Source of the DNA: a virus
Lineage: Duplodnaviria > Heunggongvirae > Uroviricota > Caudoviricetes
IMG/VR virus record: IMGVR_UViG_3300043418_000226
Length of the DNA: 64,000 nt
Direction: 5' to 3' (one strand)
Shown here in pieces: positions 27,690 through 42,110 of the stretch. The notes below the pieces were generated by a model. It saw nothing but the letters and a program-made list of their open reading frames with translations, did not search any database and was not told where the DNA came from. Numbering within the stretch: the stretch's first letter is position 1; each line of letters begins with the position of its first letter. Both the position numbers and the translations under genes were made by a program.

Positions 27690-27730
27690 CTTTTACAAAG
27701 ATAAATAAAAAAAGGTTAAAAACCTAATTT
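27690..27730 (-). promoter_or_regulatory. Bacteroidetes-type promoter (-7 TAtcTTTG) driving the tmRNA
   Basis: + strand TTTTACAAAGATAAATAAAA; reverse complement gives TATCTTTG. Confidence 0.6.
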
Positions 27731-27758
27731 TAACCATTAATTTTTTTAATTAAGACAA

Positions 27759-28016
27759 TTACTTCTTTTTTGGAGTTGCCTTTGTTGTTGCTTTCTTTGT
27801 TGCAGGTTTTTCAGTTGTTTTCTTAGGTGTTGTTTTTTTTACCTTAGATTTAATTTCTTTTACCGCTTCTTTAACGATTTCAACTTCAGCTTTAACTTCA
27901 GTTTCTAATTCTTGGATGGCAATTACCTTTTCCGCTACGGTACCTTTACCGAAAAGTGACTTAATAAGATCAATGATTTTTTTCATGGTTTTTTTTGTTT
28001 TATATATAAATATCAA
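27759..28016 (-). CDS. lysine-rich histone H1-like DNA-binding protein
   Basis: C-terminal KKTTPKKTTEKPATKKATTKATPKKK tail. Confidence 0.6.
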   Translation of the reverse strand: MIFIYKTKKTMKKIIDLIKSLFGKGTVAEKVIAIQELETEVKAEVEIVKEAVKEIKSKVKKTTPKKTTEKPATKKATTKATPKKK

Positions 28017-28033
28017 TTATTACTCAAAAATTA

Positions 28034-28714
28034 TTAAATGGACAATGGTAACTGTTTGTCATAGAGTGCCTCAAAGAAAAGTTTGTTCTTTTCCCACTTC
28101 TTATTTGTTGCACCAACTGACTTATGTGTTAAATTAATCTTGGTAGTTAATCCAATTTTTACCCCCTCTAAAAAGTTCTCAACACAGAATGAAATATCAT
28201 AAAAGTGAAACCCATTAAATTCTTCGTTGAATTCTTTCTTTATACGTCCTTTATGAACCATGAAGAATAATCCATCCACTATTACCACATCTTTAAGAAC
28301 ATCGTTGTAAACACTCTTAGAATAATGATTAACGTGTCTTTTACCTTCGTGTATGTGTCCAACAACTCCAAACATATTTTCTCGACTTGTCCACCAACAA
28401 CCACTGGTTAATTTATCGGTACCCGCAATTCCAATGATACCGTAATCGGGATGTTTATCAAATAACTTAACGATTTTAGGTGTTATATTTGACGTTTCTA
28501 AAATCAAATCATCATGCATGAACACAACAATGTCATTTTGTGATTCTTTTAATCCTTTATTGTAGATTTGTGTAAGTGATTCCAATCCGTCATTTTCATA
28601 AATTAGAATTTGAGTTTTTGGGTGTGAAAACATCTTACTTACGTGTTTTAAATAATCATCACAAATTGTTCGTGTTGATATAACCACAGTTACCGGTGTG
28701 TTAGTCTTGGACAT
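28034..28714 (-). CDS. glycosyltransferase family 2-like
   Basis: VTVVISTRT and DIVVFMHDDL GT-A motifs. Confidence 0.6.
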   Translation of the reverse strand: MSKTNTPVTVVISTRTICDDYLKHVSKMFSHPKTQILIYENDGLESLTQIYNKGLKESQNDIVVFMHDDLILETSNITPKIVKLFDKHPDYGIIGIAGTDKLTSGCWWTSRENMFGVVGHIHEGKRHVNHYSKSVYNDVLKDVVIVDGLFFMVHKGRIKKEFNEEFNGFHFYDISFCVENFLEGVKIGLTTKINLTHKSVGATNKKWEKNKLFFEALYDKQLPLSI

Positions 28715-29444
28715 ATGTTGCTATAATTTTACCTTCGTATTCTTTTAAATCTACAATCAATGGTTTATGGATTGGTTTATATTGTTCTGTACATGTAGAT
28801 GCATTTACAAATATAGTATTTTTTATTTGAACTGTCCCGTATGAACCATGAATATGACCAAAAATGTGAACCAATAAATTTTCTAATTGTTCTACACGGA
28901 ACCTTAATAGTTCACACCCAACATTTCTAACCCCACCTCTATCTTGTACATGGTCTCTTATTTCATTAGGTGGTCCATGTGTAATAAGTACGTCAGTGTC
29001 ATCAGGAATCATTGACCAATATTTTTCAATTTCTTTACCAAGTCTTGGTAAGTTAAACGCCCAATCATAAAAATTAGGTTGCCAAGGACTACCATAAAAT
29101 TTAATTGGTCTTGAAAATTCTGAATCTTCAATAATGAATTCTGAATCCTCTAAATAAGTAACATCGGATTGAGATAGATTTTCGTCATTAATGTAATGAC
29201 TTAACCATTCAGGTTTAGTTTCAAATGCAAAGTCATGATTACCTGCAATGAATATTTTATTATCAAATCCTTTTATATTTTGAAACCACTGTACAAATTC
29301 AATAACCTCATGTTCTTTACCTACATTAGTACAATCACCTGAATGTATTAGAATATTAGTATCGTTTGGGTTAATGAACTCACATGGGTCATATGACATT
29401 TTTTCGTGTAGACTATGTGTGTCGGATATTAGTATTAATCTCAT
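28701..29444 (-). CDS. calcineurin-like metallophosphoesterase
   Basis: ISDTH, GDCTNVG, GNHDF, THGPP and GHIHGS motifs. Confidence 0.8.
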   Translation of the reverse strand: MRLILISDTHSLHEKMSYDPCEFINPNDTNILIHSGDCTNVGKEHEVIEFVQWFQNIKGFDNKIFIAGNHDFAFETKPEWLSHYINDENLSQSDVTYLEDSEFIIEDSEFSRPIKFYGSPWQPNFYDWAFNLPRLGKEIEKYWSMIPDDTDVLITHGPPNEIRDHVQDRGGVRNVGCELLRFRVEQLENLLVHIFGHIHGSYGTVQIKNTIFVNASTCTEQYKPIHKPLIVDLKEYEGKIIATYVQD

Positions 29445-29475
29445 AATGTATAATATAAGAAATTATTTTTTAATT

Positions 29476-29507
29476 ACAAAAAAAAAGTCAGAATTTCTTC
29501 TGACTAA
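29476..29507 (-). terminator. intrinsic terminator (minus strand)
   Basis: minus-strand reading gives AGTCAGAAGAAATTCTGACT hairpin followed by T9. Confidence 0.6.
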
Positions 29508-30495
29508 ATTTGAGGTCGAACGGTTTTTAAAATCGTTTCGGGTTCCACCACTTAGTTTTATGAAAACTAAGAAAATTAGAGAAGAAATCTGGAATTGAAC
29601 CAGAACCTTAAATCTTTCGATTTTAATGCAAATCCTCGGATTTTTACCGTTACACTATTTCTTCGTTTAAACTCTGAGATTACAAGTTTTAATAATTGAC
29701 TTTAGAGACATTATTGTTTCTTCTCTTATCCACAGTCTTTTGAACTGTACCAATCAGTGACGGTCAATTAGATTAACCAATCCTAAAGTTACTGAATACT
29801 CTCTTTGTACTTGTTTCTTTATAACGGTGCCCCGCTAATCAAGAACTTTCTAAAAAATCACATTGGGTTTGACCCCGTTATGGCCGTGAACAACTCACGA
29901 CTATGTAGTCACCTGTTTCCAGTAACTGACGAACACTTTTTCTTTTGTTTCTTTAAGTTTTTGATAAAAATTCAAATTTTATAAGTTGTGGATTTGGAAA
30001 GTAGTGGTCCGTCAACCAGCCACGCCATCTTTTGAACGACATGATACTAAACTACTCTCTGAAGTCTCCCGACCTCCATATTTTTGGTCCCCTTCAAAAC
30101 TGAGCCCTTGGTAGAGTCCAATTAAGGATAGTAACAGCACCACCTGTTTTCTATCATACCTTTCGGTTTTAAGATTACCATTATATTGAATTACGCAATT
30201 GTAAGATTGGAAGTCCTACTTCTCACATTAATTCTACAAGTTATTCTTATTAGTGTTCCCACCTCAACCAAACGACCCACATCGCTTAGTCACCAAATCA
30301 TGTTCCCTATAGTGTTACCCTCGGTAATAAAGATTCAACGATATCTTGCTTGCCTACTCAAGTTCTATTTCTAAAACCGCAATCTACCTTCAACTAAAAG
30401 TAAATCACTTTATCCCACTTTCATGGTTTATTTCAATGACCATAGGCGGCCAATATTTTTAATTCAAAGAACGTTTTCTTTTTTAGAAACCTTTA
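29508..30495 (-). ncRNA. candidate large structured noncoding RNA (identity unknown)
   Basis: about 1 kb with no ORF of 60 aa or more on the minus strand; bounded by a promoter at 30511-30518 and a terminator at 29476-29507; locally higher GC; tRNA-like 3' module near 29590-29680. Confidence 0.3.
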
Positions 30496-30504
30496 ATCTG
30501 ATTT

Positions 30505-30545
30505 CTTTTACAAAGATAAATAAAATTTTTTAAAAAACAAAATTA
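30505..30545 (-). promoter_or_regulatory. Bacteroidetes-type promoter module
   Basis: CTTTTACAAAGATAAATAAAA with a -33 TTTG 20 nt upstream on the minus strand. Confidence 0.6.
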
Positions 30546-30767
30546 TTTAGAAACTTTTTTCGATTTTTTTTTGTTTTCTTTTGTTTCCTCGGTGTTTTCA
30601 CCTTCAGTAACATTTTTAACTTTACCTTTCGATAACTTCCATTCCGATTTTGGAACATAAGACCAATAACCAGTTTTTACTTTTGAATCGGCTTCAATGT
30701 CCGTTGTTCTAATAATTGACCCAACGTTAGTGTGGTTTGTTGACTTTACTGCTTTAATACATTTCAT
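30543..30767 (-). CDS. hypothetical small basic protein
   Basis: 74-aa ORF between the suppressor tRNA and the promoter. Confidence 0.4.
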   Translation of the reverse strand: MKCIKAVKSTNHTNVGSIIRTTDIEADSKVKTGYWSYVPKSEWKLSKGKVKNVTEGENTEETKENKKKSKKVSK

Positions 30768-30846
30768 AGTTTCCTCCGTGTTTTATAATATTAAAAGTAT
30801 AAGATAAAAAAACGAATAAGTCAAATAATTCGTAAAATTTATTTTG

Positions 30847-41408: not shown

Positions 41409-41480
41409 TACTGCGACGGGGAATCGAACCCCGGCCTCATCATGGAAAGTGATACGTGTTAACCTCTTCACTACCGCAGC
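41409..41480 (-). tRNA. tRNA-Glu(TTC): tRNA with anticodon UUC (Glu-like, atypical C37)
   Basis: acceptor GCTGCGG/TCGCAGT, loop CT-TTC-CA, T-arm CGGGGTTCGATTCCCCG. Confidence 0.55.
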
Positions 41481-41486
41481 ATATTG

Positions 41487-41561
41487 TGACCCCGAATGGA
41501 TTCGAACCATTGACTCCATCATTAAAAGTGATGTGCTCTAAACCAACTGAGCTACGAGGTC
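41487..41561 (-). tRNA. tRNA-Lys(TTT): tRNA-Lys (UUU)
   Basis: acceptor GACCTCG/CGGGGTC, loop CT-TTT-AA. Confidence 0.8.
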
Positions 41562-41565
41562 ATTG

Positions 41566-41638
41566 TGGGCCCTACAGGAATCGAACCTGTTCCTCTAGTT
41601 CTTCAGACTAGCGTACGCACCAGCTATACCAAAGGCCC
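41566..41638 (-). tRNA. tRNA-Phe(GAA): tRNA-Phe (GAA)
   Basis: acceptor GGGCCTT/AGGGCCC, stem CTAGT/ACTAG, loop CT-GAA-GA. Confidence 0.8.
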
Positions 41639-41645
41639 ATTATTG

Positions 41646-41717
41646 TGTTTACGGCTGGATTCGAACCAACGACAGCTGACGTATCAGGTCAGAACTCTAC
41701 CACTGAGTTACGTAAAC
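41646..41717 (-). tRNA. tRNA-Ile(GAT): tRNA-Ile (GAU)
   Basis: acceptor GTTTACG/CGTAAAC, stem CTGAC/GTCAG, loop CT-GAT-AC. Confidence 0.8.
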
Positions 41718-41751
41718 AATTTATTCACCAAAATTTCAAAGAACCATTTTG

Positions 41752-41824
41752 TGGACCGTCCCGGCCTCGAACCGGGGACTCGACAGTGCAAGTGTCGTGT
41801 GTTAACCATCTATACCAACAGCCC
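41752..41824 (-). tRNA. tRNA-Ala(TGC): tRNA-Ala (UGC)
   Basis: stem CGACA/TGTCG, loop CT-TGC-AC, T-arm CCCGGTTCGAGGCCGGG. Confidence 0.8.
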
Positions 41825-41827
41825 AAA

Positions 41828-41866
41828 ACAAAAAACCCTGAGATTTTGAAGTCTCAGGGTTTTAAT
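41828..41866 (-). terminator. strong intrinsic terminator hairpin immediately upstream of the tRNA array
   Basis: CCCTGAGA-TTTTGAAG-TCTCAGGG flanked by A7 on the + strand, giving a T-run on the minus strand. Confidence 0.55.
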
Positions 41867-42067
41867 ATTATTAGTTAAATTACTTGTTAACTTAATTCAT
41901 CAATTCCGAGACTATTGGACATAATACGCTCATCCGCCCATTTTGAACAGATTGTAAACGACATTGTATGTGTAAATTGTTTCATCGAAATTTAATTTTA
42001 TATTTTGTTTTTCTTTTAACCGAAAAAAAACATCTGTTAGTGTGTTATCACCACTTCAATCTTAATT

Positions 42068-42110
42068 CTTGTACAAAGATAACAATAAGTATTGTAATAA
42101 ACAAGAAAAA
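42068..42110 (-). promoter_or_regulatory. Bacteroidetes-type promoter module
   Basis: CTTGTACAAAGATAACAATAAGTATTGTAATAAACAAG. Confidence 0.55.

Follow-up and report, generated by a model that had tools for sequence, protein, structure and literature searches.

We have analyzed a 64-kb stretch of viral DNA (IMG/VR record IMGVR_UViG_3300043418_000226) in which a short module resembling a Bacteroidota promoter is repeated five times on the minus strand. The window, by which we mean this whole stretch of 64,000 nucleotides (nt), corresponds by coordinate calculation to roughly 11.1-75.1 kb of the 318,764-bp metagenomic contig Ga0485287_000013, which we read as a huge uncultured phage. All five copies, termed P1 to P5 below, fall within a block at 27-42 kb that is transcribed leftwards throughout and carries genes for transfer-messenger RNA (tmRNA), GOLLD RNA, about 30 tRNAs, SmpB and an SPFH protein, together with small open reading frames (ORFs). 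The modules are probably strong, near-consensus versions of ordinary Bacteroidota housekeeping promoters, read on the huge-phage DNA by the host RNA polymerase and its primary sigma factor. They appear to be promoters of a known type, and in silico evidence supports both their identification as promoters and their link to RNA units, with P1 heading tmRNA, P2 heading GOLLD and tRNA-Met, and P3-P5 heading three groups of tRNA genes.

Five copies of the module and the RNA units that follow them

The repeat family is defined by a core 10-mer, TATCTTTGTA (reverse complement TACAAAGATA), which occurs exactly five times in the window, always on the minus strand, at 27694-27703, 30509-30518, 39378-39387, 39947-39956 and 42072-42081. 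The mean expected count is 0.35, and none of 100 dinucleotide shuffles reached five. Every copy lies in a gap between genes, 5' of co-oriented RNA genes. An earlier note on this DNA had described five minus-strand repeats, and its coordinates agree with ours to within a few bases. The motif it quoted held only in part. The core 10-mer is present in all five copies, but the full 19-mer, TTTTACAAAGATAAATAAA, is exact in two of the five and, with as many as three mismatches permitted, still finds no copy but those at 27691 and 30506. Similarly, TAATAAACAA is confined to copies 3, 4 and 5, with AAAAAACAA in copy 2 and nothing comparable in copy 1. For the analysis we replaced the 19-mer with the 10-mer core and an alignment of the copies. 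A repeat finder recovered the family independently: repeat D2 comprises five copies of 74 nt, four of which are flagged modules (27688, 30503, 39372 and 39941), and repeat D9 (four copies of 47 nt) includes the remaining module as a copy at 42054. The fifth member of D2 is a degenerate sixth family site at 37991 (box at about 38006), which reads TATATTTC.

Aligned on the minus strand, the copies read TTGTTTATTA-N15/16-T-TATCTTTGTA-AAAG, followed by about 12 weakly similar bases that would be the first transcribed. The layout is thus TT(T)GTTTATTA, 15-16 A/T-rich bases and T-TATCTTTG-TAAAAG. Promoters for the primary sigma factor of Bacteroidota consist of a -33 TTTG element and a -7 TAnnTTTG box (PMC6847099, PMC9723704, PMC7366714), elements that go back to Bayley 2000, Vingadassalom 2005 and Chen 2007 as cited in PMC6847099. 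A later refinement of the -7 box is TAHHTTTG, and start sites lie 4-5 nt 3' of it (PMC6847099). The earlier note had recognized the Bacteroidetes sigma-A -7 box in the reverse complement of its motif, and we find TAnnTTTG, in the form TATCTTTG, in five of five copies. All five also fit TAHHTTTG, with no G at either n position. For copies 2-4 we confirmed the upstream TTTG that the note saw in several copies, at 19 nt 5' of the -7 box, and copy 5 has CTTG at 20 nt. The loose core TAnnTTTG is uninformative alone, as it occurs 102 times in the window, 27 of these within the 14% of the DNA that is intergenic.

The five modules and the features described with them here are all on the minus strand. 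P1 (27690..27726) has TATCTTTG at 27703-27696 and a predicted start at 27691/27690. Its -33 position falls inside a weak AT-rich hairpin and T-run, identified by eye, that resembles the terminator of the upstream operon. The P1 product would be tmRNA (27271..27679), which encodes the tag ATSNVAVV. The box is 16 nt 5' of the mature tmRNA 5' end at 27679, and because transcription is reported to start 4-5 nt after the box (PMC6847099), P1 would give a leader of 11-12 nt.

P2 (30505..30541) consists of TTTG at 30541-30538, a 19-nt spacer and TATCTTTG at 30518-30511, with the predicted start at 30506/30505. The box is 452 nt 5' of an Rfam GOLLD match, which covers the 3' domain (29671-30059) of a GOLLD RNA that we assign to 29671..30505, its putative variable 5' domain reaching up to the P2 start. 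The distance from this predicted 5' end to the GOLLD 3' end would be about 835 nt, which agrees with full-length GOLLD; env-38 GOLLD, examined by cryo-electron microscopy, has 833 residues, including a variable 5' domain of about 420 nt outside the Rfam model (PMC12286853). Six nt after GOLLD lies tRNA-Met (29579..29664), which probably belongs to the same unit, and a terminator-like hairpin with a T9 run (29486..29505) would close it.

P3 and P4 have the same architecture. P3 (39374..39410) has TTTG at 39410-39407, a 19-nt spacer, TATCTTTG at 39387-39380 and a predicted start at 39375/39374. Its box is about 105 nt 5' of a tRNA gene at 39272-39200 (Asp/GTC by eye), with further tRNA genes after it, and a T7 run closes the leader, which is about 100 nt long. 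P4 (39943..39979) has TTTG at 39979-39976, a 19-nt spacer, TATCTTTG at 39956-39949 and a predicted start at 39944/39943. Here the box is about 80 nt 5' of tRNA-Met (39869-39797), giving a leader of about 75 nt, and tRNA-Thr (39644-39571) follows. We considered whether the two leaders are structured RNAs and rejected the idea, as their fold z-scores were -0.9 and -0.4 and neither matched Rfam even at E 0.5. Both leaders carry a near-palindromic word, TGTAACGTTCA (TTGTAACGTTCAT), at 39330-39340 and 39881-39891. We also discarded this word as a meaningful shared element, because only two exact copies exist and its one-mismatch count is near chance.

P5 (42068..42105) has CTTG at 42105-42102, a 20-nt spacer and TATCTTTG at 42081-42074, then TACAAG, and its predicted start is at 42069/42068. 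The box is 250 nt 5' of tRNA-Ala (41824). Between P5 and the tRNA array are a putative 32-codon ORF, MKQFTHTMSFTICSKWADERIMSNSLGIDELS (41887..41985), and a strong terminator-like hairpin of 12-14 bp with a T-run (41832..41863), which ends 8 nt before tRNA-Ala. Together the ORF and hairpin (41832-41985) could represent a gene for a small peptide, a small RNA or an attenuator before the tRNA cluster.

Distribution of the promoter class in the window and in related phages

We retrieved 44 related huge-phage loci that carry the SPFH protein, trained a matrix on these loci only, and then applied it to the window with a threshold score of at least 18. The scan returned 13 matches, among them all five flagged copies; 12 of these 13 matches fall between genes, and 12 lie on the minus strand. 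The remaining eight sites precede the SPFH gene, the ClpB-like gene (two tandem sites), the orf144-SmpB operon, orf347, orf79, orf346 and the tRNA-Leu cluster. The best score in the window belongs to the SPFH gene promoter (32952..32959, minus strand), which reads TTTGG-N19-TACATTTGTA. Also on the minus strand are the promoters of the orf144-SmpB operon (TACCTTTGTA, 34661..34668) and of orf347 (TTTGG-N20-TATCTTTG, 13648..13655), the two tandem promoters 5' of the ClpB-like ATPase gene (TACTTTTGTA and TATATTTGTA, 56924..57002), and the tRNA-Leu -7 box (TACATTTG, 37794..37801), which has TTTG 20 nt upstream and lies 33 nt before tRNA-Leu. The only top-scoring plus-strand site is TTTGG-N19-TATATTTG at 1249..1256. 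The only one of the 13 that is not intergenic, TTTGG-N20-TATATTTG at 53621..53628 on the minus strand, is inside orf82, 55 nt before orf346.

Because protein genes are headed by the same class of promoter, the class is not specific to stable RNAs. The earlier note had proposed that it is devoted to driving stable-RNA operons. Each flagged copy does head a unit with a stable RNA, but sorting the motif matches by gene class places SPFH, ClpB-like, the SmpB operon and orf347 under the same class, and the idea of dedication has to be given up.

The relatives show the same pattern. In the 44 loci together with the window, the spacing between TTTG and a following TAnnTTTG has its peak at 19-20 nt (27 and 57 cases at these two distances, compared to about 10 at others), and the clade consensus is aaTTTGGt...tTAtcTTTGTA. 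Thus TATCTTTGTA is simply the consensus -7 box of the clade. Among the relatives, 81 of 82 class sites share their strand with the SPFH and RNA genes, and the sites are found in front of ORFs (at 13-65 nt from the ATG) just as often as in front of RNA genes. Clade sites are found 15-35 nt before start codons with an orientation bias of 100:46. The complete 642-kb genome LR756502.1, whose SPFH protein shares 65% identity with the one encoded in the window, contains 56 class sites, compared to 0-5 in shuffles. These cluster in strand-coherent regions and are nearly absent elsewhere, and one precedes each of five tRNA arrays and GOLLD. Overall, class sites are regional and strand-coherent, with none in the terminase and structural blocks. 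The distributions in the window, the relatives and LR756502.1 together indicate a general, probably temporal, promoter class rather than a stable-RNA class.

Several individual promoters are conserved between phages. The GOLLD promoters of the window (P2) and LR756502.1 share 23 identical bases, TTATCTTTGTAAAAGAAATCAGA, while their spacers and upstream DNA differ. In related locus L086, two tandem TATCTTTG promoters lie 466-569 nt before GOLLD, and the GOLLD-tRNA-Met arrangement is common to the window, L086 and LR756502.1. The tmRNA gene of locus L055 is preceded by TTG-N20-TATTTTTGTA 18 nt before its 5' end, the same layout as P1. At tRNA-Leu, the promoter reads TACATTTGTA in the window and TATCTTTGTA in the orthologue from locus L057, which points to turnover within a constrained pattern. 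These conserved footprints at GOLLD, in L086, at the L055 tmRNA and at tRNA-Leu argue for function and against mere recent duplication.

L086 also contains at least six almost identical promoters of the form ATTTGGAAWT-N-TTTCGTATCTTTG within 1.7 kb (18048-19736, plus strand), around tmRNA, tRNA-Met and GOLLD. This set is a more stereotyped version of the module.

A different sequence, TATTTATA, often gTATTTATAg, occurs 3-42 nt before many start codons, including that of the terminase gene (sites at 61714, 58120, 13694, 23775 and 63540 on the plus strand, and at 54258, 5190, 2580, 1196, 28005 and 6870 on the minus strand). One possibility is a middle or late promoter with a single box, comparable to T4 TATAAATA. 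We set the sequence aside as a second promoter of late type and keep it as a lead only, because its count is at chance (18 compared to 14.2) and its orientation bias in the clade is weak (32 compared to 24).

Host, sigma factor and alternative explanations

Translation signals in the window resemble those of Bacteroidota. A Shine-Dalgarno tetramer precedes none of 63 genes and 44 of the 63 have A at -3, and this combination is the translation signature of Bacteroidota (PMC6847099). The window also encodes a SusC-like TonB-dependent receptor with a CarboxypepD_reg domain (6979-9612), which is unusual on a phage. The phage genomes larger than 634 kb in one study had Bacteroidetes as their predicted hosts (PMC7162821), and LR756502.1, at 642 kb, would be counted among them. 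Because Shine-Dalgarno sequences are absent and A is found at -3, because of the SusC-like receptor and because of the SPFH kinship to LR756502.1, a Bacteroidota bacterium is indicated as the probable host.

The following scheme would account for the promoters. Host RNA polymerase with its primary sigma factor (sigma-A/ABfr) would read the -33 TT(T)G element, the A/T-rich spacer of 19-20 nt and the -7 TAnnTTTG box, and transcription would start 4-5 nt after the box. The promoters belong to a larger class spread along one strand-coherent genome block and serving protein and RNA genes alike, and within it the -7 box and start region of the five flagged copies, TATCTTTGTAAAAG, are the best in the clade. 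Host RNase P and 3' processing enzymes would release mature tmRNA and tRNAs from precursors with short leaders.

We next considered how far the conservation of the module extends beyond that of host promoters. A 20-base extended form had seven matches in IMG/VR and 38 across 185,579 genomes, which is about chance level plus an excess in Bacteroidota. About half of the 38 genome matches are in Bacteroidota, at ordinary promoters; one is directly before tRNA-Val in Hallella and another, judged by eye, is before a sequence resembling a thiamine pyrophosphate (TPP) riboswitch. The occurrence of the form at ordinary Bacteroidota promoters indicates that it is compatible with the host. The -33 element has been reported as weak in host genomes (PMC6847099), and it was weak too in about 135 kb of Bacteroidota loci, a sample too small and noisy for a host logo. 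The earlier note had stressed that conservation past the minimal boxes is unusual for hosts. The phage promoters are indeed more uniform than those of hosts, but their core is the host consensus and their 20-base form is found at ordinary host promoters.

Some observations weigh against the view that these are ordinary housekeeping promoters read by the host enzyme. Copy 1 lacks a -33 element, with TAGG at that position. The small ORF and strong terminator-like hairpin separate P5 from its tRNAs, so that transcription of the six-tRNA cluster would depend on read-through or a further promoter. The 20-base form is present three times in the window and never twice in any matched bacterial contig, a true excess for 64 kb. 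In the phage clade the -33 element has a regularity far beyond that reported for hosts (PMC6847099). There is something that holds these promoters to an unusual uniformity. The inspection for sigma factors covered 64 kb of the 318,764-bp contig, and a low-GC subclade of the relatives encodes an ECF-like sigma factor. The cultured Flavobacterium phage immuto had no such promoters in the 24 kb around its tRNAs, and it is an uninformative comparator.

One way to explain the uniformity is a conserved sub-class, TATCTTTGTAAAAG(AA), fixed from -13 to about +11, that marks GOLLD, tmRNA and some tRNA units across huge Bacteroidota phages with proteins sharing only about 65% identity. The extra bases would be the target of a dedicated input to timing or strength, which could come from a phage factor that works on sigma-A at the -7 box and start region, or from control through the initiating nucleotide, similar to growth-rate control. 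We consider such a dedicated input unlikely.

The proposal of the earlier note, a phage-specific class, is distinctly unlikely. In this scheme a phage-encoded or modified sigma factor, or host sigma-A retargeted by a phage co-factor, would read promoters dedicated to stable-RNA operons. The GOLLD promoters that are identical from -13 to about +11 in two phages with 65%-identical SPFH proteins would fit such a reader, as would the three extended copies in 64 kb compared to at most one per matched bacterial contig, and huge phages with sigma70 and AsiA-like genes have been reported (PMC7162821). The 74 window ORFs that we scanned showed neither a sigma nor an anti-sigma Pfam domain, and no matching RNA polymerase gene was found among them. 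We also used E. coli RpoD, RpoE and FliA as queries against every ORF of the window, of the relatives and of LR756502.1. The one real match was an ECF-like sigma factor of LR756502.1 (363627-364262; L095:43627-44262), which aligns with regions 2 and 4 of RpoE (E = 3.6e-8). A match of window orf252 (35468-36226) to FliA by phmmer (E 0.008) was rejected as spurious, as it aligns a non-conserved linker only and the ORF has no Pfam match. The ECF-like sigma factor is encoded in 47 huge-phage contigs (L112-L173) at 42-79% identity, and six of these also have an SPFH gene 5-25 kb away, a proximity that would favor a phage-encoded reader. Against this, no homologue was found in the window or in loci L046-L093, which comprise the 44 SPFH-flanking loci and four from the window's own phage, and the promoter class is present both in contigs where the ECF-like sigma factor was found and in contigs where it was not. 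Moreover, ECF sigma factors read AAC/CGT-type boxes and are not expected to recognize TTTG/TAnnTTTG. The gene is common in lake metagenomes (426 matches), and the contig of the window is not among the best 80 of the 426.

The notion of a separate class is not supported because the motif shows no departure from the host consensus (PMC6847099, PMC9723704, PMC7366714), protein genes share the class and no sigma factor was detected in the scanned ORFs. The same 20 bases at ordinary Bacteroidota promoters speak against it as well, and the suggestion of a modified or phage-encoded sigma factor finds no backing in the domain search of the 74 window ORFs.

Very unlikely, in our judgment, is a mainly historical similarity, in which paralogous promoter-plus-RNA cassettes arose by local duplication and the conservation outside the boxes has no function. 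Only copies 3 and 4 look like duplicates: they are 569 nt apart, almost the same from -37 to +5, and have the leader word TTGTAACGTTCAT in common. Phage tRNA fields are also generally thought to grow by duplication. For the family as a whole, identity among the copies is only 61-70% over 74 nt in AT-rich DNA, and the flanks are unrelated and do not align. In addition, the extended -7 box recurs at non-paralogous sites in the relatives and at the orthologous GOLLD promoter, where the spacers have diverged, and the replacement of TATCTTTGTA by TACATTTGTA at tRNA-Leu reflects turnover under constraint.

It is highly improbable that the boxes are binding sites of a phage regulator (operator or recombination sites) that resemble promoters by chance: they are repeated same-strand intergenic words, with a near-palindromic TGTAACGTTCA close to copies 3 and 4, but the bipartite spacing peaks sharply at 19-20 nt, clade sites lie 15-35 nt before start codons with the 100:46 orientation bias, the match to a well-defined promoter consensus is exact and the box has no dyad symmetry.

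Neighboring genes and comparison with known systems

The minus-strand tRNA gene field (34710..41824) holds about 27 genes; small ORFs, one HNH-like ORF and one ORF resembling dTDP-sugar epimerases lie among them. SmpB is encoded at 33798-34229 and the ClpB-like ATPase at 54890-56902. T-arm-like words (GGTTCGAATC and similar) without a called tRNA occur on the minus strand at 39428-39510, 36236-36330 and 36525-36600, and may be degenerate or intron-containing tRNA genes. Among the relatives, long tRNA matches of 113-129 nt are found in L055 and L086, and a group I intron match in L057 (16790-17004).

Just 3' of the SPFH gene is an amber-suppressor tRNA gene (anticodon CTA; 30846-30919, minus strand), and relatives L055 and L085 have the same CTA tRNA with its own promoter. 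Three of 63 genes in the window end in TAG and 55 end in TAA. The suppressor tRNA together with the rarity of TAG stops hints at TAG read-through or recoding. Farther along, the ORFs scanned at 46276-61660 (plus strand) include Pfam matches to a T4-type RNA ligase, the cyclic-phosphate-processing receiver domain cREC_REC and AAA_33 kinase-like domains, a set that suggests a tRNA repair module.

The analysis yields a concrete, predicted map of how the RNA-gene block of an uncultured huge phage is transcribed, with tmRNA, GOLLD and tRNA units and a probable GOLLD start. It adds sequence-level support for a Bacteroidota host, and it points to the use of host-type promoters by this phage clade for its RNA genes with roles in translation; as such, these promoters may work without phage factors. 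The uniform boxes could also serve as compact, strong promoter parts for engineering in Flavobacteriia or Bacteroides. The finding reveals no new transcription mechanism.

In gene content the phage resembles the Mahaphage huge phages (PMC7162821), with its 318,764-bp contig, about 30 tRNAs, tmRNA, SmpB and SPFH protein 65% identical to that of LR756502.1. The likeness comes from gene content and SPFH. The window is without a close relative in the phage collection: its T4-type terminase shares no more than about 26-28% identity with any entry there, and a search of that collection for near-identical DNA returned only tRNA-sized matches. The GOLLD RNA resembles known examples beside tRNA islands (RF02032; PMC12286853) in its conserved 3' domain, variable 5' domain, length above 800 nt and position next to tRNA-Met. 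What is added here is a putative promoter and 5' end for GOLLD in huge phages that probably infect Bacteroidota, which has no bearing on the function of the RNA.

With the sigma-A/ABfr promoters of Bacteroidota, the modules have in common the -7 box, a -33 TT(T)G at 19-20 nt, an A/T-rich spacer and upstream region, and the possibility of short leaders. They differ in being located on phage DNA, where recognition by the host holoenzyme is predicted from sequence, and in that the -33 element, the T at -13, the TA after TTTG and the AAAG start region are much more uniform.

The T4 early, T5 and T7 A1-A3 promoters are strong early phage promoters that match and extend the host sigma-70 consensus. 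The modules resemble them in their near-consensus host boxes, extra conserved positions and A/T-rich upstream tracts, and in being clustered in strand-coherent regions and absent here from structural regions. They differ in the sigma family and consensus involved, and in that the promoters described here head tmRNA, GOLLD and tRNA units in addition to protein genes. The simplest reading is that these are host-type phage promoters that would be stronger and more uniform than those of the host itself, as are the early promoters of T4, T5 and T7.

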